A program made the translations under genes and the position numbers. A DNA stretch of 63,423 nt, the filler included, from Sphacelaria rigidula (Eukaryota): NCBI GenBank assembly GCA_964200075.2. It is 11 parts of 11 records of this genome, joined end to end, with 100 filler letters (N's around TTAATTAATTAA, not from the genome) between each part and the next. Parts side by side here need not be neighbours in the genome. Positions count along the whole stretch, not along the records: positions 46,201 to 51,875 come from CAXNAA020025357.1; 10 more parts are not named here. The stretch is one strand, 5' to 3'. Numbering within the stretch: position 1 is the stretch's first letter; each line of letters starts with the position of its first letter. Positions 4,980 through 57,476 of this stretch are shown here, piece after piece. The notes under the pieces were generated by a model. That model did no database searches. It was given only the letters and a program-made list of their open reading frames with translations, and was not told where the DNA came from.

Positions 4980-6542
4980 ATCCAGTTGGAGGTTGCTGGC
5001 GCGTGTCCGGCCAGTTCGCTGGCACGTCGTGAGGCTTACATCCTTGGTAAATGGCTTCGAAGACGCTCGCCGTGTCGCCTATTTGATCACCGCTTCCGGG
5101 TAAACCACCGTCTGACACGACGAAGTCGCGCGCTTCCGCCAGCTTCACCTGGTGAAGGTTAGTGGGCATTTGGGAGAGTTAGACGATACAAGAGAACTAC
5201 GTAGCCGAATCAGTCCCAGGGTGGTTGGATCCAGGAAGTGCGATTTAGTGCAAAATCTACCCTGCCAGTCAGAAACGAAGGGTTGCTCCGGTCGGTCAGA
5301 ATAGAACCGCAGAATTGCATAAGGCCATCTGCAGAAGGCCTTCGGTGCAACTTTCCTAGCTCTGCTGCCTCTTTCGGGCCAAGCACCTTCGATCCATCGA
5401 CTCTTTGGGGCTCTGAGGGCGTGTCTTCGCACGTTCGTTTTCGATTGAAAAATTGATCTCATGGGCCCACCGCATTCACGTTCCTTGAAGGCTTCAACTC
5501 AAAATTTTAAACTAACGGCGCGCGGAGAAGAATGGAACGACGTATAAAACAATCGTTTGAGATTGAAAACATGCGGTCGAAAGGCACGAAGCGGCACTTG
5601 ACTCCTATCCTACAAATAACAGCCGATTTTATATTTTGGGGTTCAAACAAAGTATGGGGCTGAAGTGGCATATCTNNNNNNNNNNNNNNNNNNNNNNNNN
5701 NNNNNNNNNNNNNNNNNNNTTAATTAATTAANNNNNNNNNNNNNNNNNNNNNNNNNNNNNNNNNNNNNNNNNNNNCAATGGTCAAACGGCTAAGGCAAGC
5801 AACACATGAGAACGCCCCTTCCCCTTCCGGGCACTTACCTGTTCGTGACGTGATAGTTTAATTCTCATGTGCACATTGAAGTAATGGAGTGGCCACCTCC
5901 AGGGGGGGGAGGGTCTGGTTCTGCTTAGAAGTTATTCCACATCAACCCCAAGCCAGTATGATCTGATATCATCGAGACTCCGAAGTTCTTGAAATCAGCG
6001 GGGCAAATCCCACTCAGCAATATTCTGTATGTTTCCTTTGTCCAGATGTTGCGAGTATCAAGTCAAAGCCGGAACCCTGACCCAGTACAAAACTCGGTAA
6101 TGAACAATGTTTTTTACATGAGTCAAACCGACGAATGAGGCAAACATGTTTGTGGTCATATAAGATTCTCACAATATATACTACGTGTAGCATCAGATAT
6201 CTGCCGAATCCGTCAGCGAGAGTTGACGTTTTGATGTTTACGTGCTTGTTAGCCACGTGGAGAAAGAGCCATTCGTGCAGCTGAATCGAACAGTGAGGCG
6301 GTACACACATAATACTTGCATACAGATTTATGATTCATTGATATCCGGCCGTGACACTGATGCACAGCGGTTCCCCTGCAATACTGCACGAGACAGGCTT
6401 CATCTACTCTTGCCGTACGTTTCATATACATTTATTGTATCAAATGTATGTATATGTATATATATATACCATGATCGCATACTCGTATTCTCTTCCCATA
6501 ATGTCTTCACGACTTGCTCGCCCATGTTCGCTCTCATTTTAG

Positions 6543-15890: not shown

Positions 15891-16063
15891 TTTCTCATAC
15901 GTCCACTATGATAATAGGACAAAGAAAAAAATAGGGCTGTGAACCGGCTGCTCTTGCGAGTTAAGTTTGAAATGGCCGCAACAACGACCAGTATTATATC
16001 GATGTTTTCCCAGTTGATCGGCGAAGCCGAGCCGCAAACGCCCCCCCGCCCCACATTGGTCTT

Positions 16064-16120
16064 TTTTGACTATGGCATACATGATCATGAGTACACCCCC
16101 CCTCCCCCCCGCCCCCCCCG
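16064..16120 (+). mobile_element. Poly(C)-tailed retroposon, family A, extremely 5'-truncated
   Basis: ...GACTATGGCATACATGATCATGAGTACA-CCCCCCC; CCCCCCCGCCCC on both sides (possible TSD). Confidence 0.75.
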
Positions 16121-17325
16121 GCTGGTGAGGGAGCCTCGCTAGAGCGCCGCCGGAGGCGAGAAATATTGCGTTATTTGGCTTTTTTTTTCTGGAAAATGTA
16201 GAAAATTGTAGAAAATGTAACCCCCCACATTGAGGAGCTAAAGTCTCAGATGGCGTTCAAATCTCATTCAAAGTGGTGAGCGATTTGGAAATCATTTATT
16301 TGTAATAATACGCAGCAGCAGACTCTCCATGATGAGGAGAGGAGGATACAAACAAGCCAAGGCTCTTCATTTGTTATTGGGAAAGGTTCCACGGTTATTA
16401 GGACAAAAAATAATGATTCGTCAGGAAATTACTTGGTTTTAGTATAATAAGTTGACTCGTGATGAATGAATCCCCATGACTCATTTCAGCGTTACAACCC
16501 AGGTACACGCAGCCCAGACGCGTGGAATGGCGCAAAAGTTGCGTGGGACACCCCTTGGACCAGCGGTCAACTTTTGCCTCCCTCTCGGGCAATCAGGCAG
16601 AAGATATCGTGAATTTTGTGATTTTGAGTCGTGATGATTTGTCCTAACCATTGAAGGTTCTTGCGTTCTCGAAAAAAATGGTCGTTACCATACTAAAACG
16701 CCGTAAACCAGAGAAACATACATGTATATATGTATATATATTTCCACTTTTTTTGGTTCATTATTCCCTAGCGAGGTCCCGCACATTATTTCAATACACA
16801 AACATCAAACATGGGCCGGTAAGTGGTCTGCAAAGTACTGACAGGTGCACGCTTCAATTCTACTCTCATTTTTTGTTCGTAATAATGCAAGCATCTTTGT
16901 TATTAATTCATTATACTAAACTTGGTATAAACATAGCCGGTAACGGCAAACTCCAAATAAGCTGGATAAACTGGAGTCCTCATCACCAGTTCCAGTGAAA
17001 CTCCAGTTAGTTCCAGTTTCATCGCCAGTACAAACTGGTCCAGTTCACAGCCCAAAAAAGAAGTGGTTTGCGTCGTTGTTTCATATAATATTCATGTCCG
17101 GGCTGTCTTATTATGGTAGGTTGAAGAAAACAATGGTTAGCTCGAGAGTGACCAGAAAACCCCCTCCAAGAGACCCTATGTACCCCCCCCCCCCCCTAGC
17201 GTCCCGATTGTTTTTTTTTTTTTCTNNNNNNNNNNNNNNNNNNNNNNNNNNNNNNNNNNNNNNNNNNNNTTAATTAATTAANNNNNNNNNNNNNNNNNNN
17301 NNNNNNNNNNNNNNNNNNNNNNNNN

Positions 17326-17344
17326 ACTACTACTACTACTACTA

Positions 17345-17413
<69 letters not shown>

Positions 17414-17665: not shown

Positions 17666-17954
17666 GAATATATGTTTTTTTCGAACAAACTAACAATAAC
17701 GCTAACCCTAACCCTAACCCCGACCCAAGGCGTACGGGCAAGGGGGGTGCATTGGTTCCCCTAGGCAAAGTGTGCGTTGGGGGACCTGACATCGACGCTG
17801 CAGGCGCCGATTTCGACAAACACACGTTCTGGACGAGCTGGGTCCACTGCTCACCTTCCCCAAACCATAATTTTTTCACATCTCTCTCGAGTCTGTCTAA
17901 AATCAAGTAGTCATGTTGTCAACCATAGATATACTACCAAAGCTTGAGGCCTAC

Positions 17955-19372: not shown

Positions 19373-19420
19373 GGGGGGGGGGGTGTACTCATGATCATGC
19401 ATGCCGTAGTCATAAGACCA
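19373..19420 (-). mobile_element. Poly(C)-tailed retroposon, family A, 5'-truncated
   Basis: G11-TGTACTCATGATCATGCATGCCGTAGTCATAAGACCA flanked by CCGGGGGGGGG and CCGGGTGGGGG. Confidence 0.8.
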
Positions 19421-19974
19421 ACCGGGTGGGGGGCGGGAGGTGTCTGTCCACAGAGCAGCCGAAACGCTCACCAAGTCAACCATGTGTGTTTGGAAGATTC
19501 CCGCGGAGGATTCTAAACCAGGAATGAGGCCCGAGAGGCGCGGAATAACCGTTCTGAGCAATCACGGCCGTCAAAATGAGCACGTAGTTCCCCTACAGGT
19601 GGACTTCTTCGCTGTCTACTGGAATATCTCATCTTGGTCATCGCCGGTCAACCATAGATGTCATGGGTACAAATAACTTATTTGGTACTCTGCTCGAGGT
19701 CTGTGCCGCCTGTTTGACGCCTCCTGTGTTGCCAGCATAGCTTCACAGTCCTAAGTGTTGTTGTTGAACACTAAGCAGATGCATCAGCAGCATGCAGTGA
19801 ATTGTGTTCGGTGGAGAGCGATGGCGCACTGACTGTTTCTTGCCGTTGTATCCAGCGGAGACATACCGCACACATACTCTGTACGCTATTGACTACACGG
19901 TCAAAACCGGTCAGGGGTTCTCCGAAACTAATTTCTATACAGATGCCCAGGATCCACATGATGATGAAGAAACG

Positions 19975-20213
19975 TGTTGTGTGTGTTGTCCCTTCCATTC
20001 TGGACGCCGGTCTACACCTTTCGGTATATGTAGGCGCAGCAGCCGGGGTCACACAGGAGGAAGGTCAACACAGGAGCTTTTTGTTTTTTATTTGTCTTTA
20101 GTACCGCACCTTCCTTCTGCGGTGCTTGTGTAGCGAGAGGAAAGAGCTGTTCTGAACCCCGAATGTGGGATAATCCATCCCAGTCCACCTGCGGGGGGGT
20201 CGCTGTCTGAGGG
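19975..20213 (-). mobile_element. SINE-tail-bearing element with a different upstream body
   Basis: 19975-20128 is the 3' half of the tRNA SINE; 20131-20213 instead matches 36851-36928. Confidence 0.65.
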
Positions 20214-21199: not shown

Positions 21200-22196
21200 A
21201 TTTGATTGTCTTTCCCCTGTTCAAAAAATAAAACCAACCATCCATCCTCAAACAATCTTCAATTAATTAATTAATTAGTTAATTATATATTAATATATAT
21301 ATTATTATATATGGTTCTATTTTCAATCATATAATTTTCTTCATTTTATAGTTGCGAAGTATATATCTACCAACCCTCCGCGCCCCCGTTTTGTTTTTGG
21401 TTATCAATATCCGCCCCAACATGCGCGCTCGTACGCACACTCTCACAGAGTTTATCGGGATCAACGACCATCACACGCGATGCTCCGGGAGATGTCAGGC
21501 TGAGTATCGACGGCAGTCAAGATGAGGGAAAGGGGGAGTCGGCTGCCGTTGCTCAGGCTAGAACGCTGTTTGCTCAAGGGTTGATTTCGGCCGAGGAATT
21601 GGAGGCGGTTGTTCAGAAGGATCAGGTGCACCTTTCCTTTCATTTTTTTTTTTTTCTGTTGTGTTATAAAGTGAGAATTTCACACTCTCCCTCAGCCGTG
21701 ACGAATCCGCATCTTCAAGGAATGAGTAAACTACCTTACTGTCAATTGTCCGAATTGAAGTCGTTTTTTTTTTTGCGTGTGGTTTCCCGCATGTCTTCAT
21801 TTACTCACGTCGGAGTGCAAGATAAAAGCATGTGAATGCGTTGTTCTTTTGAAAAATTCGTTCCCATTTGTCTTATTTGTTACCATGTCAAACTATTCAT
21901 CAATTTGTTGGTCGCTTCTTGTATACATTTTTTTTTTTTGTCATTTTGACTCGTTTTATTTTTCATACGCACGAATGCACAAGACGAGCAAAAAATTATC
22001 ACATCCAGGCTTCTTCAATCAAGTGGTACAGCAGCAGCACATGTGTTTCCGGCTGAGCAACTTCGTATAGTACGTCTATTTTTGTTTTTTGCGTTTTTTT
22101 GGGGGGCGAGGGCGGGGGAGGGGACACTTTCAAAACCTTCCCTTCCTTGGGACTAGTCCGTGGTCTGAACGGTCTCATCAATTCCTCCCCCCGGTG

Positions 22197-22961
22197 AGGA
22201 AATTACGAAAGGGCGGGCTGGAATAAGGTGGGATAGAGGAGTCGAGAAAGTATGGAAAGATATAAGAGGAAGCCAAGACGAAATACTGCCCTTAGATAAA
22301 GGCGGGGGGCACAAAACAAAAGTAAGAGTCATGACAAGAAATAAGGGAGAAAGAAGCGCTACGACGCGAAGTAGACGAGGAAGAACACTTGGAGATATGC
22401 GGAGGGTTCAGAGAGGGGATGAGGATGAAGACATATTTGCGTGGCCCAATCTACGTGGCGAAAAAAATGAAACCGCGATTTCGGGTGGGGAACCTGGACC
22501 TCCCGGAAAGAATAAAGAGATATACCAGGAGTCGTAAGGAGGAAAAAGTAGACGCACAGAACTGCCCCTGTGGCGAAGCACCAGAAAGCAGAAGTTATAT
22601 AGTTGCAGAATGTGAACAATACAAGGAGGAACGGGACGTGCTAAAAGGGAAAATGTGGGACGTGGACGAAGGTGGGATGAAAACGTTTGATGCATTAGTT
22701 AGTAGGGAGAAAACAATGGTTATACTTGAAGATAGATGGTGGTCACAGACGGCGAAGCAGGACGGGGATAAGATATGTAAAAAGGTTTTTGCGTAATGTA
22801 TGGAAGAAACATAATGAGCGCCGGAATGTTGAAGGTGTCTCTGTGAGAAGTAGGAACGATGCTCCGTCTGGAAAGGGATACGTGGTCAATGGTCGAACGA
22901 CGAGGGCAAGCAATGAATGAGTACGCCACCCCCCCACCCCCCACCCCCCCCCCCCCCCCCC
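22197..22961 (+). mobile_element. 3' end of a LINE-like non-LTR retrotransposon (frameshifted ORF C-terminus) ending in poly(C); family B
   Basis: KGRAGIRW..V motif, RFRVGN..L, degenerate zinc knuckle CPCG-x3-ES-x2-Y-x4-C-x2-Y-x3-R and FLRNVW, as in LINE RT C-termini. Stop at 22918-22920 followed by GTACG and a ~36-nt C-rich run. Confidence 0.8.
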
Positions 22962-24705
22962 GGCCCGTACCCCACCCGCAGCCCTCGAGCTAGTGGTAGC
23001 NNNNNNNNNNNNNNNNNNNNNNNNNNNNNNNNNNNNNNNNNNNNTTAATTAATTAANNNNNNNNNNNNNNNNNNNNNNNNNNNNNNNNNNNNNNNNNNNN
23101 CTTTTGAAAAAAGGTTGTCATGTTCTAGGAACGGGATACCGAACATGCCCCGGATAGCAACCCCACCCACTAGGAGAAGCACCAATTTTTCCGGATATCC
23201 CCCCCCCCCCCCCCCCAGATCAATGGGATATCAACCCTAGGGACCCATCCCTATTTCACTTCAGGGATACCCTCGCGTGTGCTTGTCAAACGACTAACAC
23301 CCCGGGTTGAGGTTCCACCCGACACATTCAGAGTAAGACACTAACAAGTCCGTGCGGCCCCATGTGATTGGGCGATAAGTTCGTGCTGTTGATACGACGG
23401 ATTCATCCTTGAACGGCGAATTCGGCCATTATCTTCAGTTCGTCGAAGTTACGTTGTTTTTTCTTTTCAGCAATGGAAATGTCAAGGGTGATAGCAGACG
23501 TACTCGCCTTGAGTGACTTCATGACGTCTGCAAAATATCTAGAATATCAACCCGACAACGGGTTTTGCTGTAGGCTGATACGCTATCTGAATGAACGTTT
23601 TCCTTTTCCGAGGTCCTGAATCACTTGGAGCATCGGAGCTCAAACGTGGCTAAATGTAGGGGCTTTTGGGGACTCGGATTGTAGATACCTACGGTTCGAG
23701 CTCGTAGAACGTGATCGAATGATGTGCCTGTGTCTTTCGTGGCAGGTCGCCTGATATTTGACCGTAGGATCAACTCATCCATGCAAACAGTCGCCGTGAA
23801 GTATCGTGTTTCATATCTGCCGGACCCCGTAGGGTGATGGTCATTGGTTTCAAAAATGCTTACAACACCGCCCGGTTGGCGTCTGATAAATTTTGCGCTG
23901 CCATTTGATCTAGAATGACTGTTTACCCTGTCTCCCAGTGTGAGCGGGGTGTCCTCAGCGAAGGGGACGAAACAGTCTCTTCGAGGCGAACAGCACGAAC
24001 AACAGCCGAAATTGACAGCAACATGGGTCATATCATTTCCAAACTCACCCCGCTTAGCGCCGCGCTCTCCGATTGGTCACTCGGCCGCTTGCATTGTTTC
24101 ACACTATGAATATACATCAAGTACAGTGGGGCGGATGTAGAACGGTCTGCTTGCGGAACGTGTACAAAATATTGTCCAGAATGGCCACGCCCTTCCGGAA
24201 CGAAAGGAATCCTGGATTCGCTGCTCGAGTTTTGAGAGATAAAACCTGAATATTTCAGGAGAGGGGTACATCGATCGTTCAAAGGGCGCGACAAGCGTAC
24301 ATCCCTCATGAGCCAAACGCGAAAGGTTGTATTTTTATATACCAACAAAAACAAACTGCCCGGACGGTTTATTTCCAGGTCGTGGGTACCTGGTTTTTCG
24401 CTATTCGCTTTTGGAAAATATGAGCAGACAACGGTTGGTGTAAGTCAGTCGAATGGGTCACGATGCCTCTCAAGAGAAGGGAAATTCCGGTTATGAAGCC
24501 GTTCAAATGGGCAATTCCTTCGTCTTCCTAAATGTGCAGGTTCGTACTCTCGAACCTCAAGTACATGTCGCCGGAGAAAATTTCCAATCTTTTAACCCGG
24601 GATCAGGGCTTATGGCTTATTGGAGCGTAGAATGCAACCGGGGTTCGTGACATATTCAGGAGTTACGTTGACGCTGCCGGGTGTCTCTTCGTATTTTTGG
24701 CGCAG

Positions 24706-34350: not shown

Positions 34351-34550
34351 GGGGGTGTACTCATTATCATGCATGCCATAGTCATCAGACCATCGACCTC
34401 GCATCCCTACACAGCCGGGACGGAGCACCCCGGGTTTTCGCCTCACCAGGCTTTCACTCAAACCACCAAGCGAGCAGCGCCGTGGTGTGTTCGGCGAGTC
34501 GCATAAAGGGTGAGCTGCATCCTACTAAGACTGTTCGACCCGAAGCTTAC
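34351..34550 (-). mobile_element. Longest family-A poly(C)-tailed retroposon copy (200 bp, cut by contig end)
   Basis: Shared 3' end plus an upstream body unrelated to the LINE ORF; a degenerate + strand copy lies at ~35316-35468. Confidence 0.8.
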
Positions 34551-34716: not shown

Positions 34717-36095
34717 CTCGAAAAAAAAAAACAGTTAATCGATCGGGCACGAACTATTCGAAGAAAACAAAAGACGGTTCATCACTACCAAACAGTCATC
34801 AGTCGTAGCTAGCCTGTGACCACGGAAGGCGTCCGCATCGGATGCCCAGTACGAATGTACCGCGCAGATATCGGAACGGTTTTTAATGTGCAAGACAACA
34901 ACAACAAATAAACGGTGAGAGAAAAATAGATAGACCTCAAGTCCGGTCAAACGGTCGAGGCGCGGATGAGAAAGAGAGAGAAATATGGAGAGAGCGACGT
35001 CTACACCATGAAGAATACCGCAGGTGATACCCTGATTATAGGACCCTTAGCAAGGCGATGAGAAATCCGAATTCGATTATTCCTCGTCAACTGCGGCAGC
35101 CACGCCACCGACAGATTCGTCTCTGCCGCAATGTCTCTTGGAAACCGTTCGGGAAAACTTTGTCTTGTAGCAATGCAAGTACGGCCTTGCGCATGGAGGA
35201 AATCGGGGTTGGGTTCCTTGCCACCCCACCAAACGAACTCGATCATCTCAAGGTACAGCATCCCTCCCCCCCCCTCCCCCGAGGCTGTCATCTATATGCA
35301 AGATAACTACAGTAGCAAGCTTCGGGCCGAACACACCACGGCGCTTCGCGCTCGGTGATTGACTGCGATACTGGTCCGGGAAAACCCGGCGTGCTCCGTG
35401 TCGGCTTCGTAGATATGCGACGTCAACAGTCTTACGACTACGACATGGAATGACAAGTAAACCGCACCACTTCATCATTCCTCCATCACACCGATTTCGT
35501 CTTGCCTCAACCGAAATGACTCCACAACGTGTGAAAAAGGTGATAGATCCTATACAGACACTCGTGGTACATTGCATACCAGTTGTGATGTACAGGGTAG
35601 TGCCTGCCATCGGTCGAAAAGCTGCTTGACCCTCGCACGGTGACGGCAGCCCACTTGAGTTCACATACGCCGATGCGGCGCTACTTCGTGTATGACATTA
35701 CGCGAAGGACTAGTCCTGGAGTAGTAAAGATTCCAAAGTTCTTCGCGGTCAAAGGCTTGACCGCTGGAGCGCTAGGAATCGTTTTGGGAACAACATCGCT
35801 GGGGGAGTCTCAATAACGGTCAACAAGTCCCACGCCATGGTGACGGAATAAATTCTTGGAACAAGAAAAAAGCGCCTTGTGCAAATGTTTCCAATTGGAA
35901 GGAAGGGAAAACAAAAATATAACTCCGTGATCTTTGTCCAATGTTTTGTCTTTGCGCTGAACCATTTCATGCGTGGGGGAAAAAAAGTAATTTCGTTCGG
36001 GCTCGAGAACAACAAAAAAAGACATCACTGGTGAGAGAAATCGAAGTGCAGATTTTGAGCTACACACAAAAGCTGTGCCCGGTCTGCAGCGCTGC

Positions 36096-36170
36096 GGGGG
36101 GGGGGCGTACTCATTTGTTGCTCGCCTTAGTCGTGTGACCATTGATCACGCATCCCTTTCGAGACGGAGC
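36096..36170 (-). mobile_element. Family-B poly(C)-tailed insertion with TSD
   Basis: AGCGCTGCGGGGGGG at 36088-36102 and 36168-36182. Confidence 0.85.
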
Positions 36171-38431
36171 GCTGCGGGGGGGATGAGTTGGGAACAGAGC
36201 GCGATAATTCGTGTGCACATCTTATCATAGGTTTTGCACGTGCGTTGGGCCACGATTCCACAGCAGAGGTTACGCTTTTATATATGTATATATAGACACA
36301 CACATGATACAGGGAAATTGAACGGTGACCACGCAAAACGAACAAATCGTTTTCTCTGGCTTCGCACAACGTGTGGACCAACCGACCAAGTACACATCTG
36401 CAGGAAAAGCGAAGTAGTAATCGCAAACTTCTTGCCGTTGTCGTTTTCGTCTGCTGTTTCTTCGGTAATGTCGAGAAAATAGAGGGGAAAAAAAACACAT
36501 TTATAATTGTTCCGAGATAGAATTAGTTTAACGTATTTCGGTGACCTTACACTTCTATTCACTACTGATTTTTTATCGTGATATTGATAGTCTAGGATAC
36601 GAATAAGAGTGAGAAGCGGCAAATTAGTGCATAAAATGGTGTCAGTTCCGAAATGCCCCTCCGGGCCTTGTACGAGGCCCGGCATGCTTCTGTGGTAGGT
36701 TGCTGCTGAAGCGGTTAAATCCCTGAGTAGGACATTAACGTGTAGCTATAAGCACAGAACGGCGTCACGGGCAAAGAAAAGTCCGGGACTATTTTCTATT
36801 CTCCACATAGATGCCAAACATCCACATTTTCACGAAAAAGGCGTTTTGTGTAGCGAGAAATGAGCTGTCCTGGAACCCGAATGTGGGATAGTCCATCTCA
36901 GTCCATCTGCGGGGGGGTCGCTAAGGGTCAACCGATCCGCGAACACAATAACTCGCTGGCCGCTGTGCCTTGAAGTGACCAAAACGACAAGATACATCTT
37001 TTCCCAGGCTACTATAGTGCCCTTGGCGATGTATGTATTGCACACCTTGCACAATATATGGTCAGCAGATGCGATAGACAAGAATTGTACTGGATCAAGT
37101 ATAGCCCTATTGCACCTATTCACACGTCGGATAGCTCATGAGCTACTTGAATCAACTATTCGAAGAAGACTCTGAGATCCCTTGTTCAATAACACAAAGT
37201 ACGTGACAGCAGGGTGCGAGGAGCCAAAGCGCCACCTTTGCACTTCGCCGCGAGCTCAGTGTCCAGTGCTTCAGGGAGAACTTTTGGAAAAAGAAAAAGA
37301 GCCTAGAGGAGCTATTACTGTAATAGCTCATGATCCGGATCAGCACACAAATAAGAAGTAATTTCAGGTAGCTCATGAGCTGTCCGACGTGTGCAAATAT
37401 TGACGCGCCGTCGTTAGTTGCAATAGGCCTATACTTTATCCAGTACACTTCTTGTCTACTGCATCTATTGACCATATATTTGTTGTCCAGGGTGTACAAT
37501 AGTAGTTGCACTAGGTCAATACTTCACACGGTACATTTTTTCAATTGCAACCCATTGTCCACATGTTGTCCAGGATGTGATGTGTTGCCATCTTACTCAT
37601 ACTACACTGACGGTACTTCACCTGCGCCCAATCTACGAACAAGCTCCAAAGTATCGCGTTTATGACCGTGCCCGACAAAAAAGCCTGAAAACTGAAAACT
37701 TGCAAGGTTTTGGAGGGGTGAACGGCATCCAACTGTACTGTTGTCCCTGTAGCAGTGTAGGGAGTGCCGTAACGCCACTCCCATTTCGGGACGAAAGCGT
37801 GGGTTTGACAGTTAGAGCCCTGAGTACCTTTGCTACATTTTCAAAGGTTCCGTTAAGCTGGCACCTGGAATATATCTGCAAACCTTCAGCTGCAGTACCG
37901 ACGAACTTACAACAAGTGCATAGGTGTGAATTGTGGATTTACACGCAGTCTGCCAAGAGCTTCGAGGACCGCACGAGGTACGTTATTTAAATGGGAGAAG
38001 GTATAGATACACGTGGGAGTCATCCCGTCAAGGATTTTGCTCTTTGATGGGTTGGACACCTACGGCACCCATAGCCAGAGTCCAAAATTAGGGCCAGCTA
38101 TTCACGACCTTCATTGCAATGAAGGCATGTTCGAATGCAGGCGACAAGGTCATCGCCGTTTTCATGGTCACGCACAGCCATTCAGCTACGTACGTCTGCA
38201 TTCTCAGGCACGTATGAACGGCAGACTACACGTGTTTTCCCATGACCACGGTGTGTTCAAATCCTGCGTTGGGAGCATACTGTATGATCAACACATACAT
38301 CATGTTTGTGAAGCTCTCTTGGCGAAGTCGAACCAACATAACAACAGAAAAAGCAGCGACCACAACAGCAACATCTATTATTGGAAGTTGGAAATTGATC
38401 CGTAATGATAAAAACAAAAACGAGGGCATAC

Positions 38432-40425: not shown

Positions 40426-40481
40426 AATGGTCTTATGACTATGGCATGCATGATCATGAGTACACCCCTCCCCCCCCTCCC
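40426..40481 (+). mobile_element. Family-A poly(C)-tailed 3' end at contig start
   Basis: AATGGTCTTATGACTATGGCATGCATGATCATGAGTACA-CCCCTCCCCCCCCTCCC. Confidence 0.85.
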
Positions 40482-46100: not shown

Positions 46101-46230
46101 NNNNNNNNNNNNNNNNNNNNNNNNNNNNNNNNNNNNNNNNNNNNTTAATTAATTAANNNNNNNNNNNNNNNNNNNNNNNNNNNNNNNNNNNNNNNNNNNN
46201 TTTTATTTATCTTTTTCGCTAGTGTCTCTT

Positions 46231-47631
46231 CTACGGTCCGTGAAGGGCATTTGTGGGGGGGGTGGGTGGGGAAGAGATTTCATCAGACACTCTTGCCATC
46301 ACACCGTACAGCAAATCCTTCTCAATAACGGTACTCGTGGTCCTCACCCTCTCTGTGATGCAACAGCACAGTCGTGGCTTCTCCGGAAGGCGTACTTCCT
46401 CTGGTTCTACGCGCCATCGCATTTTTTGCACCTGGACACAAGGAGATAAGAAGAACGAGTGAACGCCCCAAGACGTGAAATCACGACGACAGGGACGACA
46501 GGGACGACAGGGATGACGACTACACGAAAAAGACGGCGGCAGGTGTGGCCAGTGACGGCATCAGCACCTTACTTCTTAGTCCAAATCCTACTGAAGTGAT
46601 TGGAAGAAACACTGGCAATACGTTGTCAGTTGACATGTTGAAAGGAGCTTTGAGTGTGCTGTTTCTCGACGTGGAACCGCAGTCGAACACTCACGAGCAC
46701 TAGAAGCCACGATCCTGACCACGACATGCAACTTCAAAACGCTAGAAATAGGTCCAACAGAGCTCCCGCGACGGTACCTCCAGCCGTGCGATAATAACCC
46801 GTCGACTTTAAGAAGCCACATGCTTGTCACGCCCAACAAGTGGAGAAAAGGCCGACGTAGGCGGCATGAGGGCTGGTTGCAAACGTCAAAAGGTACAAAA
46901 TTTGAAAAAAAAAACACCAACACCCACCCACACATACACACACAAGGGAGCAAAATCCCAGCCTGCCAGATTCCAAATTCGCACTATTGGCGTGTCAGCC
47001 GAAAAACAAAACGAGCGTCTTGGTTGAGAAGTGTTGATGATGCAGACAAGTAAAAGGGGTGTCTTTCCCTCAGACTGGCTTCTCACCTCAACCTGGGCTC
47101 TTCGTCGGGGCTCCTCGCAAATCTGATTCATGTACTTGAGGGGAACCTCCGCCTCGTATATGTCGATCACATATCTGGCGATACCCGATACCGATACAAA
47201 TGTGTGCGAGAAGGGGGCGAGTATCGTCAGTTGCTCGAGGCCGTAGTTTGATTGGTCGTTCGATTGATTGTCACCCGTCAACCGATCCAGTTGCGTGTTC
47301 TTCAAGCACTTGCAGTGTGGAGGGAGTTTGCACATCCGAACTTTTTCCTCATAGGGTACTTCTACGAACGAAGACCGGATGCGCACCAAGCAACCACATA
47401 TCTAGGTCCCTGTCTGCTCGAATTGAAAGGATCTCCGTGGCCAACATCCCCACAACACTCCTCATGACACACTTGACAGTCGCGTAGCCAAACACAACAT
47501 GAAGTCTCCACAAAGGAAGTTTGGAATGTACACAATTTGGAGTTCTGCTTCAGCGCAAGAGTATCTGTGGTTTCTGAATACCCACGATACCTGAGTGTGT
47601 AGCCCCTACCCTCACAACCTTCTGTGATTTC
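46231..47631 (-). CDS. Possible short exons of an unknown gene (~47631-47591, ~47174-47087, ~46431-46231)
   Basis: Short open frames bounded by AG/GT sites; no recognisable homology. Confidence 0.25.
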
Positions 47632-48170
47632 CTGCAGCAGTGGAGGAGACAATCCGGCGCTGCAACACACAAGTTCAATAATATCAGCCTTATTAGCCGA
47701 AAAATAATTACCGCTACTCCGCAAAAACAAATCCGATTCGTCGAACACAGTATGCAACGCTGCAGAACAAAGCTGCCGGTGTGCCCCACGCTCACACGAC
47801 GCACGGCAGCACAAAATGCACACTACGTGCTTTTTCTGCGGAGGCAAAAAGTAGCTGAAACTGCCCCGTCGATGCCCAATCCATCTGCCGCACGTCATGC
47901 CACTGAGATACATCAAAAAAGAACCGTGCTCGATTCGAACCTTGAGACAAATAGACCACCTACTTCAACAGGTTACATTTTCACCTGCAAATATCCTGAG
48001 CACTGTCCTTTCCGTACATCTCGAGATACAAGAACCATACTGCCGGGTTCACTCCGCGATAGTCCACTCTAGACACCAGCCCCTCTCGTGGCGTCTTCAA
48101 GTCATCTTCCACCAACGCTGTTTGTTCCATCCCCGATAAATGAAAAAACGAACGAGTGAGGGGGTGTTTA

Positions 48171-48719
48171 CAGTAGTGGGCGGTCTAACTATTCATTTTG
48201 TGGCATTTTGTGATTTTTTCGTAACAGGCGACTTTCTTGGGCCTTTTTCGCTTGCCACCCCTCATGACACCGGGGATCTAAAGATATTTCTATCTGCTCT
48301 ACATTCCAAGAAGAAAAATCATCTGTACTCAATATTGAGCGACTTACGGGCGGACCGGTCATCGGGGGTCCTGCCACGTTTTAACCCAGGTTCTTACTCT
48401 TCTGTATTTTCGGTCGATCGAGCCCGTCCCGATCATATTTTCGAAGAAATGTACAGTTTTATTTTTTGAAAGTATGCCTACTCAGTGCACTAGGGCCAAA
48501 AAACTGTGTTTCACGGTCAATAACACCCTCCTGATGAACGGGGTCTTTGCTCGTTGTGCCCGATAACGCCAGGTAACATTGACTTGGGCACTTTGTTTCG
48601 AAAATCATCTGTTTTTTTGTACTAAAATCTACCGATGCTAGCAATTTCGAGTTCTATCGAAGAGTAGTGCGCGAGTAAAACCCCAAAACACCCCTAAATA
48701 GTTAGACCGCCCACTACTG
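48171..48719. mobile_element. Tc1/mariner-type MITE, 549 bp
   Basis: Perfect 23-bp TIR CAGTAGTGGGCGGTCTAACTATT with TA on both sides (48169-48170 and 48720-48721). Confidence 0.92.
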
Positions 48720-50431
48720 TAGTTCGTCGAAATGTACCTCCACCGCGGCTTGTCAGGAGAAGGAGAGTGTTCAGACCAGAAAGGTAGTTAATCATGTTTT
48801 TCGCCTGCAACCGGTACTACTACTTCGCACCAGATGTACAGGATTGGATCAACTTGCTATAAACACCGTTTTCAATTGGAATTCTTCAGAGACGTCAACT
48901 GGGGATATGTGCCGCGCCCGTTCATTTGAAAAAGGAAAAGAAAAACTCGCCTTGTACGACGCACGCGCAAAACGGACCTTTTCGTCAAAATCCAACCTGT
49001 ACCCTCGCTAGACGGAAATTTCTGAGGTAATGCCGAATTTGGTGGGCTTTTTTTTTTTAATACCTTTTCGACATGGCCCTTCCGACCTTTTCTAGCCGAG
49101 TTGCCCGAGGATCTATCGGTCATCTCATGCAGTTGGCCCGCCTCCCCTAACCCAACCACCAGCAACAGCAACCATGACACCCGAAGGATCGATATTTTCG
49201 TCAGTTGATTTGCCGCTCACCAAACCAGAACGACCAAACCCCGGTGTGTTCTTTGATTGATTAATTTGATTTTTTTTTATTGTCGCACTTTAACCGACCC
49301 CCCAGGGGTCCAGCCGTGGTCTCATAAAAACCGAACGAACCCAAAAAAAACGAAACTGAAACACGCTCTCAGAAGAAAAAAAAAAAGGAACAGAAAAAAA
49401 AAACTTTGAGAAAATAAAATCAGAGGCTCTGCCCACAAACTACTCTCCTAACCCAGGCACTCCGACGGCGGTTTTGCCGCACACCGAAACACCCCGAACG
49501 AAAATTTCTCGCACACCGGAATCCGAGCGTAAGTCCCGACTATGGACACACAAGTTGTCCTCGTTTCTGGTAGAAACAACATGTTTTAATATTAATGCCG
49601 CTTCATTGGCCTGTTCGTCATCTCGCGAGAACCGTCCCACCAGCACGCCACACATGATATGTGGTCATGATGTGTGATCACCCACTCTCTGCGCACCAAG
49701 GCCCTCTCTAGAGAGAGACACGGAGAGCATACGTAGTATCTTCTTTCCATCAGGGTACATTTCGCGGTGTAACCACTTCGTTGAGGTCATGCATTATCGC
49801 AATCGGTACGCGCTCTCTGCTTATGCTTCCGTAGTGTTGACAGTTCTCGTGGCAGTGCTGTCATACCTCGAGCATGTTTTTCATCTTGCAACGCGGACTG
49901 ATGTCTGTGCTACTATAACATCCTGCCCGGGTTGCTCTCCTGTTCTGGCAAGCCTGGTACTGGTGTAGTTTCAAATGGTGACTGGGCTTTCTATATCTCA
50001 CAATAAACTCCATCGTTGCTGCGGGGACTCCATCATCTTGTAGTGTTGTAACGTTCGGTTTACTGTACCGTCTGTACTACGGCAGTTGTACCTGTACTTC
50101 ACGCTGTGGTGAATTGCTGGAAGACACGGTTCCCGCCAGACGACGAACAGGTCAATGAACCCAGAAACGAACCCAGACACATACAATAGTATCCGTCTGG
50201 AGCGCGGATAATTGGTATGTCTATATTCGGAACCGCCGCTCGGATTCTGGTGTGAGGGAAATCTTCGTTGGGGGGTGTTTGGTGTGCGGCAGAACCGCCG
50301 TCGGAGTGCTTGAGTGCGGAAAGTGAACACGTCGGGTTTACTCATTTCGATGGGATAAACGGCAAATCAACTGATGGAAAATCGACTCTTCGGGTGCCGT
50401 GGTTGCTGTTGCTGGCTGTTTGGCTAGAGGG

Positions 50432-50508
50432 AGGGGGGGGCGTACTCATTTGTTGCTTGCCTTTGTCGTTTGACCATTGACCACGCATCCCTTTCGATAC
50501 GGAGCACC
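50432..50508 (-). mobile_element. Family-B poly(C)-tailed insertion with a perfect 17-bp TSD
   Basis: GCTGTTTGGCTAGAGGG at 50415-50431 and 50509-50525. Confidence 0.9.
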
Positions 50509-51660
50509 GCTGTTTGGCTAGAGGGGGCACCGACTGCATGAGGTACATAAGGTCCTCGGGTAGTCCATGCCCGGCTACAAAATATCGAGAGGACCATCTA
50601 GAAAAGGCAACAACGCCTGTCCTTTCGAAGTGCTTCCACGCCCTGACTGCCGATACCTCCGTGTCACCCATATAACATTGTGCTATATACCACGACTTGA
50701 AGTTGTTGCCTACAGAGTACCGGAGAGAGGTGGGTTAATTCCTTGAGACCACGGGTTCATCTCAAGGAAGAGGAGGGGTTTAAAATGTGATAAATGAAAA
50801 GAAAAAGAGTCGTGTGGGAGATGTTGTTAGCGGCAAGGGCGATCGATGATAGTAACAAAAACATGCTACAGACATTGCACGGCTACGATCTGTAGTGGCA
50901 ATTTTATGTTTCTCTGCTGTAGTAATGCGTGGTTGGTCTATGACGACAGAGGGAAAAGGGGTGCGGCAGACCTCCCCGGAGGAAAAAAAGAAAAATAATC
51001 TTGTCGCCTTTATGAAACTTGAGCAATTTCCCCCCTCGTATTCTGTCAATGCATCCGCCCTGCACCGTACATGAGGCCTCCACTGACCCGCGTCACTCAG
51101 GAACGGTCGACATGCCACCCACTGCACACCCTATTTTGCCCGCTATCCTCATCACTCTCAGTAGCCCATGCCCCAGAGTGACTTAAGGCGATCCCCGATA
51201 CTATACAGCAGATCCGTAGACAGCAACGGCTGTGGAATTGCTGGAGAGTGAGCTGCCGCGAAAACGAAACATGTGTAAAGTATTGCGCTGCACCATACTG
51301 TAAACAGGTGGGCAGCCAAGAGTAGACAATACGCCCCATGTCCCCAGTTTGCTTTCGTCACTCTCATTAGCTCAGCACCTGCAGAAGCCAGAGCAGCATT
51401 CGTACTACGCAACACTGCTGGCTGCCGCATCATATGCGAAGTTGGAAGCTGTCAATACCACTTGCTTCAGTTCTTGTCGTTGAGAATTAGATCCACCTGG
51501 CTGACTTCCAAAGAAAGATCCGCCTCTAACTTCAAACAAATTCACATTTCAGGTCCAGACTTACAAATCTCGAGGGAAGAATCCGTCGCCGGAGTACATT
51601 CCAGAGAGCTTGGCAACCCTATTAAAGGTTACAGGGATTTCTCCGCAATGGACCACACCT

Positions 51661-51764
51661 GGTCTCTAGTGGAGTAGTAACGGTGCTCCGTCTCGAAAGG
51701 GGTGCGTGGTCAATGGTCAAACGACCAAGGCAAGCAACAAATGATTACGCCCACCCCGCCCCCC
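51661..51764 (+). mobile_element. Family-B poly(C)-tailed 3' fragment
   Basis: Aligns with 22835-22940 of the LINE fragment and ends ATGATTACG-CCCACCCCGCCCCCC. Confidence 0.8.
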
Positions 51765-51975
51765 GACCTCTGGTGAGACACCCATGAGGCAGTGTATAAG
51801 CCGTGGCTGTCTCTGCAAGTGGCGATACCAGAAAATAAAGCAACTCATTGTTGGCTATCATCCAAATGCAAGATGNNNNNNNNNNNNNNNNNNNNNNNNN
51901 NNNNNNNNNNNNNNNNNNNTTAATTAATTAANNNNNNNNNNNNNNNNNNNNNNNNNNNNNNNNNNNNNNNNNNNN

Positions 51976-51995
51976 TATTATTATTATCATTATTA

Positions 51996-52029
<34 letters not shown>

Positions 52030-52044
52030 TACTACTATTATTAC

Positions 52045-52080
<36 letters not shown>

Positions 52081-52751
52081 CATTATCATCATTCTTCTTC
52101 TTATTATTATTATTATTATTATTATGATCGTGATTATTAGTATCAGTATTAGTATTAGTATTATAATCACCATCATCATCATTATGATTTATGATTATTA
52201 TTATCATTTTGATTTATGACTATTATGATGATTATTATTATTGTTGTTAATATTATGATTATGGTTATTATATTGTCATTATTGTTATTACTATTTTCAT
52301 CAGTATTATGATTGTTATTATCACTCTAGACAGTAGATCTATTTCAGGGCTGGTCTCTGTTTCATGCGACAGTTTCGATTATCGGCTCACTCGCTGTCGC
52401 TACTTTGTGTATATACCAGTACGTGGCAAAGTAGTCGGAAAGGTCACACGCGGGACCTTTTTGATGTCAGTACGTCTCCTGTGGTTCAGTCGGTCTCATA
52501 CGGATCTTTCGTAGTGTAGGTGCCCTTTTTGGTGTAGATGTTTTGTTTCTTCCCTTCCTCTGCGGGCTGTTTGAGTTATGGGTATGGATGGTATGCTCCT
52601 CGCGTTCTGTGACCACAGGCTCGAGAGATCGAGCTAATGTGATGGATTTGATAATGCTAATAATGACAATAATAATCATAATGACAATAATAATCATAAC
52701 CATAATCATAATCATAATCATAATTATAATCATAATCATAAAAACAATAAC

Positions 52752-52838
<87 letters not shown>

Positions 52839-53070
52839 CATAGTTGTAATAATAATAGTAATAATAATAGTAATGATGATGATGATGATGATAATAAAAA
52901 TAATAATCATAATCATAATCATAATCATAATCATCATCATAATCATAGTCATAATCATAATAATAATAATCATAATAATCATAATAATCATAATCATAAT
53001 AATCATAATCATAACAATCATAATAAGAGCAACAATAATAATAATTATTATTAACATTATTATTATTATT
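51976..53070. repeat. Two AT-rich trinucleotide microsatellite blocks (51976-52320 and 52650-53070)
   Basis: (TTA/TCA/CTA)n and (ATA/ATC/ATG)n. Confidence 0.97.
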
Positions 53071-53719
53071 AGCCTAAATGATGCGCCGCTCGATACTGGA
53101 ATGAAGTAAGCGTGTGATTCCTCTCGGAACAGTAGTTTACACTTCCCTAACCTTTCATCACTGCCACAAAAAACGGCCTCTGCAAGTTGTCACAAAAAAG
53201 GGTACAACAGTATTTCACAAAAAACGGCCGAGGCTGTCACTGCATCGGAAAAACTTCTTCATCCGTCCTATTTTCGCAAGTTGATGGCAATCCGAGACCC
53301 TTTGACCGCAAGCTGCCCGGTTTTCTGGTCTGCTTTTTCTATTTTTGCACGCCCAAGTATGGTCAGTGCGTGACTGTTCCATCACTGCAAGTCGTCACAA
53401 GAAAGGGTGGAACAGTAATTCACAAAAAACGGCCGGGGTCGTCACTGCATCGGAAACATTTCTCCACTCATTACTTCCACTTGAAAAAGTACCAAAGTCC
53501 CAGCCAGCGACTGAAAACTACGTTGTCCTCTTTGGAATTATGTTACACTGTCTACTGTAGCACTTTCCCTTGAAAAAATAGTACCAAACCCCCAGCCAGC
53601 AACTAATCACTGCTATGTTCACTGTAGACTTCTGTTACACTGTCTACTATAGATTTATGTTATTGTCTACGGTACAATAATAATCCTGCACAAAACTGCC
53701 CACCGCTTTCATTGCTTGC

Positions 53720-55885: not shown

Positions 55886-56717
55886 GGGTAGAACCGGTTG
55901 TTTCTCCACCTTGACTTCTCAAGCGAGGGAGAACACTCCGATGCGGAAGTGACGGTGGCGGGTGCAGCACTTACAGCACCGGTGACCGCGCCACTCATGG
56001 TGTAGAGTTGCGCGTAACCCTAAGCGTACTGCTTTACTGCTGTGCTGTGCGGCGTGCGGTCTGTTGTGTGTTGCTACTGCCATGTGTGGACAATGCTGTG
56101 TGTATCTGCTTTAGTCGTGTATCGTCGACTTGAGTAGGTCCACTTTTTGCTCCTGTACGCCACAGGCAAAAAGATGGCATTACACAACGAAAGCGCCTCA
56201 ATTATCTTCATAAACACAACATATCAACCCTTCCGTGATGGTGCGCAACCCTAATCTGGACAAAAAGGCTTCTCTATCAGACTGAATACTGGTCGTTGTT
56301 GGAGCAATCATTTACAAAAGTGATTTTTATCCATCATCGGTGTGTTGTAGCAAACGTGCGGAGCAGGAAAGATCCAATGCCGTTGATACCTGCAGCACTG
56401 CTGCCACGCGCGTCAGCCGTGGCTTATCACTAGTTGTTATTATTGTTATTATAATCGTTATCGTTATCATTATCATTATTTATTGATTATTTCGTTGAGA
56501 CTGAACGCATCACATGGGCAAGTCGCTCATCGACCGACGTAGAACGGCCAAAAAGCAGCGTGTATGGATGAGCTCTTGAGAGAGGAAAAGCGTCGACCCA
56601 CGTGATGCGTATTGATAGTCGAGTAAAACTACGGCAGGTGTGGCACATTTGGCCTTGAACCTTCCTCAATCAGGGGCTCTCCTGACACTTATTACGATAG
56701 CCCCCCCCAAAACCAGC

Positions 56718-56802
56718 TGCTCCGTCTCGAAAGGGATGCGTGGTCAATGGTCAAACGACTAAGGCAAGCAACAAATGAGTACGCCCCCCCCCCTCCCCCC
56801 CC
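56718..56802 (+). mobile_element. Family-B poly(C)-tailed insertion with TSD
   Basis: C8-A4-CCAGC at 56701-56717 and C8-A6-CCAGC at 56795-56813. Confidence 0.88.
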
Positions 56803-57476
56803 AAAAAACCAGCCCAAAAGTGTCACGAAAAATATGGACATACAGTGCCTGAGGTTGGGTTCAGGCTGCATGAAGCGCCTCATATGGGCGACATCGGCGA
56901 GAACGAGCCTAAGCTTGGGAATTCCCGCATGATCGTTGTACTCGGCCTTTTGCATCTCGAATTACGTCAAGATTTTGCCTTCCCAAACCAGGCTTTTTTT
57001 TAGGGGGAGGCTGTCGTAGAAAGTGTCTCCTAAATGTACAAGCTAGATAAGAACATGGGTCAAGACATTCCCGTTTTGAATGTCAATGGGGACATCCCGA
57101 GCCCATCTAGAACGCTAATCGTGGCGTGCTGCCACATACTTCAGAAGTCATGTTTAGATGAGATGGACGGCTATCAACAATTTGAACCTCAGAAAATAGT
57201 TGTGCTGTAGTTCCCTGAAGAGTGCCTTCACGCTGTATTTCGGCCAACGCGAAATGTTTCCGACTTTTTTTTTATCTTACTTTCATCTCCTCCCCCTCTT
57301 TGGGACGAGCCCTTAATGCCAAAGGATCGACCCGCCTCTCCAAGTACACGACTTATATTTCAAGCATCGCGGATTGCATCAACACTTCCGCACTGCGTCC
57401 ACCCACGTCAATATTTATTGTGTTGTACAGTACGCATACCCTCATGTTTGCATCTACGAAAATTGGATAACACTCG

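Follow-up and report, generated by a model that had tools for sequence, protein, structure and literature searches.

A C-tailed LINE 3' end with target-site duplications that begin in C-runs in the brown alga Sphacelaria rigidula

The window analysed here is a 63,423-nucleotide stretch of the Sphacelaria rigidula assembly, composed of 11 unrelated contigs (5675 or 5674 bp) that are joined through N44-TTAATTAATTAA-N44 spacers and do not form one locus. BLAST comparisons within the window identified 13 copies of a short C-tailed sequence, falling into two subfamilies referred to here as A and B (Table 1). Six of these copies are cut by contig ends, and the window contigs break at these copies. 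The sequence is a true repeat, with a 35-mer matching five copies at no more than three mismatches compared with none expected from 100 shuffles. The focal copy, between positions 50415 and 50525, lies on the minus strand; read on that (element) strand, it consists of a 68-bp body ending in ...AACAAATGAGTACG, followed by C8 T, for a total of 77 bp between its target-site duplications (TSDs).

Table 1. Copies of the C-tailed repeat and their flanking duplications, in coordinates of the whole window.
Feature	Position	Strand	Details
Tail-side (3') copy of the 17-bp TSD, focal copy	50415..50431	-	Element-strand sequence CCCTCTAGCCAAACAGC
Focal-copy tail (element strand: C8, then T)	50432..50440	-	C8-T-CCC common to 170-271 contigs per run (X1, X2, X4)
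68-bp body, subfamily A: last LINE ORF codons, TGA stop, GTACG	50441..50508	-	95.7% identical to the L061 LINE 3' end
5'-side copy of the 17-bp TSD	50509..50525	-	Two further C's precede, giving a target run of C5
Second clean insertion	36088..36182	-	TSD C7GCAGCGCT (36168-36182, 36088-36102); body 36106-36167; tail CCC 36103-36105
Third insertion	56701..56813	+	TSDs 56701-56717 and 56795-56813; 66-bp body 56718-56783; tail C10 T 56784-56794
731-bp 5'-truncated copy (22195-22925)	22187..22963	+	Tail CCAC7AC6AC12; C6GG on either side
88-bp subfamily-A copy (51662-51749) with tail CCCACCCCGCCCCCC	51662..51764	+	TSD not recognised; 5' limit uncertain
Subfamily-A copy cut at contig start, tail CCCCTTCCCCTTCC	5776..5828	+	
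Subfamily-B copy (...GATCATGAGTAC and C-rich tail), cut at contig end	11382..11450	-	
Subfamily-B copy, C15 tail, cut at contig end	46020..46100	-	
Subfamily-B copy, C8 tail, cut at contig end	57581..57649	-	
Longest subfamily-B copy, 195 bp to contig end, C5 tail then AT-rich DNA	34351..34550	-	
Subfamily-B copy cut at contig start, tail C4TC8TC3	40426..40481	+	
37-bp subfamily-B copy (19384-19420), C11 tail	19373..19435	-	Upstream C6AC3GG, downstream ...C10GG
Subfamily-B copy of ~40 bp, tail C7TC7GC8	16041..16121	+	Upstream C7GC4 recurs inside the tail tract

The 77-bp unit does not stand alone as an element; it represents the very 3' end of an autonomous LINE with an ORF of ~1360 aa. Its sequence runs from the last 19 codons through the stop codon and GTACG into the (C)n of a single-ORF LINE that encodes an APE endonuclease and a reverse transcriptase. 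The ORF ends in ...APSRKGCVVNGQ[T/M]TKASNK-stop and is followed by GTACG and then by (C)n, thus stopping 5 nt before the tail; window positions 56719-56778 translate to APSRKGCVVNGQTTKASNK, then a stop. The window itself carries only the C-terminal 153 aa of this ORF (a decayed part with a CPCG...C motif at 22335-22796, within the 731-bp copy), and the reverse transcriptase and endonuclease were read from a metagenome copy and from full-length relatives. The metagenome locus L061 has an open ORF of 678 aa from the reverse transcriptase to the C-terminus that matches RVT_1 (E = 2.8e-33) and reaches its end within the unit, GTACG and C8 coming next. The 1360-aa protein P0003 is a full-length relative (90% identical) with Exo_endo_phos at 170-392, Exo_endo_phos_2 at 279-414 and RVT_1 at 740-989; P0004 is 76% identical, and both have the same last residues and an APE endonuclease N-terminal to the reverse transcriptase in a single ORF. 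The protein atlas assigns neither taxa nor a family to P0001, a shorter relative of P0003. Measured along the LINE reference, five subfamily-A copies have their 5' ends at positions 1318, 1954, 1974, 1977 and 1978, and share an end at 2042. A scan with an 18-nt IUPAC pattern, with all 260 loci checked by BLAST, found a true copy in 1 of 119 metagenome loci (L061), in 0 of 120 genome-contig stretches and in 0 of 21 viral-contig loci. The clade is probably RTE-X, an assignment that follows from the match to Ectocarpus annotation rather than from a tree.

Other identities for the unit were also considered. A tRNA-derived SINE was ruled out, as the sequence is coding LINE, and a DNA transposon or MITE is ruled out by the varying length of the TSDs. 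The unit is not among the known small RNAs, Rfam having given no match anywhere in the window at gathering thresholds, and ten long window ORFs had no meaningful match in Pfam. The folding stability of the unit is not above that of shuffled sequences (z -0.1 to +1.1). A hammerhead-like motif was rejected because its core is mismatched, as judged by eye. A small GGUC-loop-GACU hairpin keeps its stem while its loop differs between the subfamilies; the region is coding.

Three copies are flanked by clean TSDs, all of which had been described in an earlier note on this DNA and are borne out here. At the focal copy, GCTGTTTGGCTAGAGGG occurs at 50415-50431 and again at 50509-50525 (17/17 identical, coordinates re-read). 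The copy at 36096 lies between two occurrences of AGCGCTGCGGGGGGG (36088-36102 and 36168-36182, 15/15 identical), which surround a 62-bp body and CCC, and GCT microhomology is present at its 5' junction. At 56718, C8A4CCAGC and C8A6CCAGC flank a 66-bp body with C10 T. As the note had also stated, each clean TSD begins with a C-run on the element strand (3/3), and the tail is longer than the run of the other TSD copy in every case: C10 against C7 at 36096, C10TC8 against C8 at 56718, and C8TC3 against C5 at 50415, where the three C's lie inside the TSD. These run lengths come from a short-read assembly, in which homopolymer lengths are unreliable. Had the duplications been part of the element consensus, they would be expected to agree; instead TCTAGCCAAACAGC, GCAGCGCT and AAAACCAGC follow the C-run, three different sequences, and the TSDs are therefore locus-specific and lie outside the element. 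The bodies between the clean TSDs (n=3) are 62-68 bp, in addition to their C-tails.

Including the 731-bp copy, TSD lengths are 17, 15, 17/19 and 8 bp (copies at 50415, 36096, 56718 and 22195), with differing sequences, and the TSDs start with C3-5, C7, C8 and C6, besides two cases that consist entirely of C; the sample is tiny, at three clean and three C-only TSDs. The copies at 16064 and 19373, previously listed as weaker cases, are real copies of the element; their supposed duplications (C7GC4, and C6AC3GG vs C10GG) are almost all C and are indistinguishable from tail. The insertion at 50415 is present in runs X1 (a divergent strain), X2 and X4, and no empty allele was found among the assembled contigs of four runs aligned to contig 46201-51875, contigs being prone to drop rare variants. 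These observations support the copies as retroposed and 5'-truncated, with TSDs that are specific to each locus and vary from 8 to 19 bp.

The association with C-runs was assessed for the seven copies that have their 5' end inside a contig. In the 25 nt preceding the 5' junction, five of them have a C-run of at least 6 (binomial P = 4.7e-9 against a null of 0.0118 per random 25-mer), and six have a run of at least 5 (null 0.0246, P = 1.5e-9). The sole miss, the copy at 51662-51749, has neither a C-run nor a recognisable TSD; a different, very abundant repeat begins immediately downstream of it, near 51771. The first-strand nick falls in or at a C-run of the element strand, so that the bottom strand, once nicked, has a G-run at its 3' end, as the earlier note had claimed. 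We are highly confident that the unit belongs to a LINE, that the TSDs are genuine and that a C-run marks the nick site.

That this G-run primes reverse transcription on an oligo(C) in the element RNA is plausible. Under such a model, target-primed reverse transcription would make the copies, most of them heavily 5'-truncated. The endonuclease would nick the bottom strand inside a G-run or at its 3' edge, corresponding to the element-strand C-run that starts the TSD, and the exposed 3' G-run would most likely pair with C's of the C-rich 3' tract of the RNA and prime cDNA synthesis. A second nick in the top strand, offset by 8-19 bp, would then give rise to the TSD. The 3' tract of the RNA, whose form is deduced from DNA copies only, is probably C(8-10)-U-C(n). 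A T separates the C-tail from the TSD C-run in two of the three clean cases (C8-T-CCC... and C10-T-C8...), with the TSD run directly abutting it in both, whereas the copy at 36096 has an unbroken C10 across the junction. This T with the run directly abutting is not predicted by random-register pairing on a long C(n) and speaks against pairing of that kind; the interrupted junction is compatible with pairing only for an RNA tail of the form C(8-10)-U-C(n). Such a tail is supported by assembled contigs in which ...GTACG-C8-T-CCC continues into more C's, numbering 170-271 per run in X1, X2 and X4 and 33 in X5. As C8-10 followed by T is common to two window copies and to those 170-271 contigs, the tail is inherited rather than random. 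Against the model stand the copy at 51662, with neither C-run nor TSD, and the subfamily-B copy at 34351, which has only C5 before AT-rich DNA. Taken as a whole, from an RTE-X-like LINE 3' end, target-primed reverse transcription and a nick at a C-run through to pairing of the G-run with the RNA C tract, the reading seems to us modestly better than even.

The most serious competitor, which we regard as fairly unlikely, is that endonuclease specificity alone accounts for the pattern: the APE domain would cut beside G-runs, and reverse transcription would start at the very 3' end of an RNA ending in ...C8-10-U, without pairing. The junction T with the TSD run abutting it in two of the three clean cases is what would be expected if synthesis began end to end on an RNA with a ...C(n)U terminus. 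Furthermore, the first base past the C tract is a purine at 13 of 14 3' junctions (G 9, A 4, T 1, counted by eye), suggesting a sequence preference beyond the run. However, the uninterrupted C10 at 36096 does not fit such a start, and many contigs run from C8-T into long C-runs, as would be the case for an RNA with C's past the U. Specificity without pairing yields the same TSDs as pairing, sequence data do not separate the two, and they are not mutually exclusive.

Two further alternatives bear on the C-runs themselves. It is very improbable that the flanking repeats are element consensus, chance matches or short-read homopolymer artefacts. Some sequencing chemistries give poly-G artefacts, one contig begins with C21TC17, and run lengths are uncertain. 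This explanation is nevertheless refuted for the three clean cases, in which the bases outside the C-run differ from one TSD to the next and match perfectly within each pair over 14, 8 and 9 bases. In addition, contigs of X1 and X2, from two studies, span 50415-50454, from the TSD across the tail into the first part of the element, with 0-1 differences, and the flank consensus across copies has a low agreement of 0.3-0.5. Nested or tandem insertion, in which the target C-runs would have been left by older insertions from the same superfamily, as their tails or TSD runs, and the preference would be one for the family's own debris, appears improbable to us, less so than artefact. A junction of A-type body, C8 and the head of the 51771 repeat occurs in 20, 19 and 6 distinct contigs (X1, X2 and X4, respectively), C-runs edge several other repeat pairs, and in Ectocarpus a table entry notes that RTEX-N1 'can be present in tandem' (PMC12477816). 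Yet a recognisable A- or B-type 3' end precedes none of the six target runs, and nesting would be a special case of C-run targeting rather than a separate mechanism.

The suggestion that such insertions seed the poly(G/C) tracts of this genome holds in part. Of 39 G/C runs of at least 7 in the window, 16 are tails or TSD runs of copies, but 21 adjoin no recognisable copy, and the remaining 2 lie at a contig start. A/T runs of this length are as over-represented as G/C runs, with 48 observed vs 6.8 expected, compared with 39 vs 6.5 for G/C (62 kb). The repeat itself is very abundant: summed contig depth at 50464 reaches 5.5 million in X1 vs ~24-32 in the flanks, with similar ratios in X2, X4 and X5. 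This ratio is not a copy number; the summed depth suggests an abundance of the order of 1e5 genome equivalents.

A close mechanistic parallel is mammalian L1, in which the endonuclease reportedly nicks at 5'-TTTT/AA-3' and the resulting T-run primer pairs with the poly(A) tail. The Sphacelaria element resembles human and other mammalian L1 in its APE-type endonuclease, variable TSDs and 5' truncation, and in a TSD that starts with the tail's homopolymer while the nicked strand ends in its complement. It differs in that the homopolymer is C/G instead of A/T, the tails contain interruptions, C(8-10)-T-C(n) being a recurrent form, and there is almost no 3' UTR, the ORF ending 5 nt before the tail. 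Moreover, the C tract cannot arise by polyadenylation and must be encoded by the element and transcribed. Waldo, Mino, Kibi, Koshi and Dong are said to be R1-clade elements that target microsatellites and carry a tail repeat corresponding to the target. In SART1Bm, a telomere-specific LINE, the tail repeat likewise matches the target repeat (PMC7265360). As in these elements, a simple repeat is the target, and the starting point of reverse transcription is probably influenced by the RNA 3' end; whereas they are strictly specific for one repeat, the insertions described here are dispersed and share only a short homopolymer at the nick.

The novelty implied by the earlier note was overstated, as C tails and C-rich TSDs are already catalogued for Ectocarpus RTE-X LINEs. 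The entries for RTEX-1_Ec32, RTEX-2_Ec32 and RTEX-N1/N2_Ec32 read '(C)n 3'' and '(C)n termini/TSD', with TSDs described as 'C-rich'; these are table notes only, and the main text, in the portion available, contains neither 'C-rich' nor a mechanism (PMC12477816). Short non-autonomous RTEX families in Ectocarpus share their last 60-100 bp and are listed there as the most abundant TE families (PMC12477816). An Ectocarpus 'unnamed protein product', in a record not labelled RTE-X, is 71% identical to the ORF and has the same C-terminus, ending ...NGAPSRKGRVANGQMTTASNK. The Sphacelaria element resembles the annotated Ectocarpus RTE-X LINEs in its single EN-RT ORF, (C)n 3' terminus and C-rich TSDs; it differs in its host organism and in a protein identity of only 71%, and ~62-68-bp bodies dominate in the window. 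The Sphacelaria C-tailed LINE is real, and its pattern belongs to this catalogued brown-algal kind. A literature search of titles and abstracts found no paper on a poly(C)-tailed retrotransposon or on C- or G-rich TSDs with reverse transcription, the available poly-C passages of papers that mention non-LTR elements concern no C-tailed LINE, and the available passages of a paper on bivalve RTE-X do not mention tails.

It is possible, by our estimate a little short of even, that a brown-algal RTE-X lineage has swapped the A/T logic of L1 for G/C. The endonuclease would expose a 3' G-run able to pair with an encoded C(8-10)-U-C(n) tract located 5 nt after the stop codon and probably carried within a longer read-through RNA; this pairing would set where reverse transcription begins. 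The family, with copies of the order of 1e5, and a non-autonomous partner of roughly 300 nt would then make and re-use C/G runs, giving tandem arrays and self-reinforcing targets. In practical terms, the element bears on the assembly and annotation of brown-algal genomes, with contigs breaking at its copies and a summed unit depth ~1e5x that of the single-copy flanks. G/C homopolymers are rare in most genomes; if the pairing of G-run and C tract is real, it would help to explain why they are as common as A/T homopolymers here (39 vs 48 runs of at least 7 in 62 kb). It would also offer a tractable system in which the effects of endonuclease specificity and of primer-template pairing could be told apart, and would constitute a second natural case of homopolymer-guided target-primed reverse transcription beside the T-run and poly(A) of L1, with a tail that does not come from polyadenylation.

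The 77-bp unit of the copy at 50415-50525 (the focal copy) was compared with LINE sequences from the window, a metagenome and public assemblies. The 731-bp copy in the window carries an ORF that stops 64 bases short of the unit. In the metagenome LINE locus L061, the sole true match among 260 pattern-fetched loci, an uninterrupted ORF of 678 aa with an RVT_1 domain (E = 2.8e-33) enters the unit, its stop being the TGA of AAATGAGTACG, 5 nt ahead of C8. Two full-length relatives drawn from public assemblies, P0003 (1360 aa, 90% identical) and P0004 (1328 aa, 76%), share the terminal residues ...NGAPSRKG.VVNGQMTKASNK, and P0003 has an APE-type endonuclease (170-392) and an RT domain (740-989). 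Translation of window positions 56719-56778 gives APSRKGCVVNGQTTKASNK, then a stop. An ORF that runs into the unit, together with the matching C-termini of its relatives, indicates that the 77-bp unit is a LINE 3′ end, consisting of the last ~19 codons, the stop, GTACG and the C-tail of a single-ORF APE-RT LINE. Extreme 5′ truncation produced the short copies.

Since the ORF of L061 reaches to 5 nt from the C-tail, hardly any 3′ UTR is left. Across L061, P0003, P0004 and the Ectocarpus protein P0005, the last ~20 residues are kept between relatives only 71-76% identical overall, a C-terminal conservation that could stem from a constraint on the 3′ end at the RNA level.

The 63,423 bases are several loci, not a single locus, since ten N44-TTAATTAATTAA-N44 spacers split them into 11 separate pieces of 5675 or 5674 bp. 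Piece edges in the window often lie in C-runs, ACT/ATT microsatellites or the LINE tail unit, and the pieces look like consecutive, length-sorted contigs from a fragmented short-read assembly. The sequence is eukaryotic and contains a copia-like pol remnant as well as the LINE ORF; a Pfam search with the copia-like ORF gave no match at E ≤ 0.1.

Features of the window and of locus L061 (window positions unless stated)
Feature	Position	Strand	Remarks
Spacers	5676-5775, 11451-11550, ... 57650-57749
Microsatellite arrays, ACT/ATT-type	17326-17760; 51976-53200		long, at contig starts
731-bp LINE copy	22195-22925		153-aa ORF at 22335-22796, CPCG...C motif
Copia-like ORF	26167-26697	-	end resembling Ty1/copia RNase H/pol, identified by eye
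Longest subfamily-B copy	34356-34550	-
TSD of 36096 copy	36088-36102 and 36168-36182		AGCGCTGCGGGGGGG; encloses 62-bp body + CCC
TSD of 50415 copy	50415-50431 and 50509-50525		GCTGTTTGGCTAGAGGG, plus-strand reading
Second very abundant repeat	~51771 to contig end 51875	+	directly after C-tail of A-type copy
TSD of 56718 copy	56701-56717 and 56795-56813		C8A4CCAGC and C8A6CCAGC; encloses 66-bp body + C10T
L061 LINE ORF	694-2730 (on L061)	-

BLAST within the window recovered 13 copies, six of them cut by contig ends, in two subfamilies: A ends in ...AACAAATGAGTACG-(C)n and B in ...GATCATGAGTAC(A)-(C)n. A motif scan of the window yielded no additional copies. C-rich tracts that follow ...AGTAC or ...TGTAC at 10647-10672 (-) and 17183-17196 (+) could be copies cut to a few body bases, too short to assign. 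The duplications described in the earlier note were found in place when the three clean cases (copies at 50415, 36096 and 56718) were re-read. On the minus strand, the 77 bp enclosed in the focal copy comprise a 68-bp body ending ...AACAAATGAGTACG, then C8 and T. Because the duplicated sequences are unlike in the three cases, they are target-site duplications (TSDs) and not element ends.

Subfamily-A copies start at positions 1318, 1954, 1974, 1977 and 1978 of the LINE reference and all end at 2042. Three of these five starts (50505-50508, 56718-56720 and 36165-36170) lie within 5 nt, reference 1974-1978, where a small hairpin, ACGG-UGCU-CCGU, is predicted to have its loop. The clustering could mark a preferred stop of the reverse transcriptase, or be chance.

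The earlier note's claim that the TSDs lie at C-runs holds, with solid statistical backing. In each of the three clean cases the run occupies precisely the TSD end nearest the tail. For the seven copies with a 5′ end inside a contig, the longest C-runs in the 25 nt upstream of that end were 5, 7, 8, 2, 6, 6 and 7. Runs of at least 6 thus occurred in 5/7 copies and of at least 5 in 6/7, as against 1.18% and 2.46% of random 25-mers from the window (binomial tails 4.7e-9 and 1.5e-9). Three more copies have near-all-C duplications inseparable from the tail (22187-22194, C6GG; 19421-19435; 16041-16052), and the copy at 51662-51749, whose 5′ limit is uncertain, has no recognisable TSD or C-run. Ahead of the six target runs, no 3′ end of subfamily A or B could be recognised. 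As the C-run begins the TSD, the first nick, on the bottom strand, leaves G's at its 3′ end.

In their anatomy the insertions match target-primed reverse transcription in which the nick lies at a homopolymer complementary to the tail. L1 has the same geometry, with a TTTT/AA nick and a poly(A) tail; here too the nick homopolymer is complementary to the element's own tail. This likeness makes the earlier model, in which a G-run primes on oligo(C) of the RNA, a reasonable one. A C tract cannot arise by polyadenylation and must therefore be encoded and transcribed, as other LINEs with simple-repeat tails encode and transcribe theirs. The DNA copies point to a putative oligo(C) at the RNA priming site.

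Priming as a G/C mirror image of L1 is a candidate mechanism and a sensible extension, complicated by a T between the tail and the C-run of the TSD in two of the three clean cases (C8-T-CCC..., C10-T-C8...); in both, the run abuts this junction T directly. Contigs with ...GTACG-C8-T-CCC followed by more C's numbered 261, 271, 170 and 33 in the public sequencing runs X1, X2, X4 and X5, and past the tail of the focal copy the contig consensus is a long plus-strand G-run. Since C8-T-CCC is common to many contigs, the junction T is not random and the tail is inherited, its form probably being C(8-10)-U-C(n). The G-run at the nick would then pair with the C's beyond the U, a reading towards which we lean. 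The same tail and junction T would fit equally well an endonuclease that merely prefers G-runs, with reverse transcription starting end to end on an RNA whose last bases are ...C(n)U, which we consider rather unlikely; special cases take up the remaining probability.

Contigs of the four runs were also set against 46201-51875 to gauge abundance; the runs containing this contig bear the label "algae metagenome" or an organism code. Depth of the single-copy flank was about 24-32 (X1), 67-76 (X2), 9-13 (X4) and about 4.6 (X5), and summed depth inside the unit at 50464 was 5.5, 10.2, 2.1 and 0.42 million, respectively. This corresponds loosely to ~1e5 genome equivalents, as an order only, summed contig depth not being copy number; that order agrees with 13 copies in 62 kb, a count biased by contig ends. 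In X1, X2 and X4, 71-100 contigs per run extend past the focal 5′ end, and their consensus matches the LINE upstream of the unit as it stands in L061 and at window 22830-22860.

The window holds 39 G/C runs of at least 7, against 6.5 ± 2.5 in 500 shuffles; A/T runs of that length are equally enriched (48 against 6.8 expected by shuffling, 7-fold). The proposal that the element seeds the poly(G/C) tracts accounts for a considerable share of the 39 G/C runs (12 tails and 4 TSD runs) but not demonstrably for all: 2 lie at a contig start and 21 adjoin no recognisable copy, part of these 21 being at edges of other repeat pairs. In two other repeat pairs (115-123 (-) with 62678-62684 (+); 20193-20199 (-) with 36911-36917 (-)) both members have a C-run at a matching position, internal or at the edge, flanked on one side or both by similar sequence; they may represent heads or tails of additional families associated with C-runs.

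The closest record is a curated Ectocarpus TE library (PMC12477816), in which the most abundant LINEs are RTE-X families. Its entries give RTEX-1a_Ec32 as "single EN-RT ORF; (C)n 3'" with a "C-rich" TSD and RTEX-2_Ec32 as "(C)n termini/TSD". RTEX-N1 (607 bp, C-rich TSD) "can be present in tandem", its 60-bp 3′ end being 83% identical to autonomous elements, and RTEX-N2 (188 bp) has a C-rich TSD too. The term "C-rich" is absent from the main text, and the parts of it considered here give no mechanism. Part of the Saccharina genome paper reports an RTEX-1 family with copies over 95% similar. Our literature search for a C-tailed LINE or G-primed reverse transcription returned nothing besides brown-alga RTE-X records. 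P0005 shows 71% identity across 455 residues and has the C-terminus ...NGAPSRKGRVANGQMTTASNK, so the window LINE is very probably the counterpart of the catalogued Ectocarpus RTE-X families, which would place it in the RTE-X clade. RTE-X LINEs that end in (C)n tails and have C-rich TSDs are thus already catalogued from brown algae; what is new is this further element.

The LINE may also have a partner. In X1, depth reached 4.4 million in the bin 51711-51875, which includes the end of the subfamily-A copy, and the junction of A-type body, C8 and 51771 was found in 20 (X1), 19 (X2) and 6 (X4) distinct contigs. The consensus after 51875 (46-99 contigs per run in X1, X2 and X4; 29 in X5) resembles the longest subfamily-B copy at its start, 34526-34550. 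This resemblance is a lead that subfamily B may be the 3′ part of a ~300-nt non-autonomous partner with its head near 51771. The C-run before partner heads would then be a target, which would explain tandem arrays.
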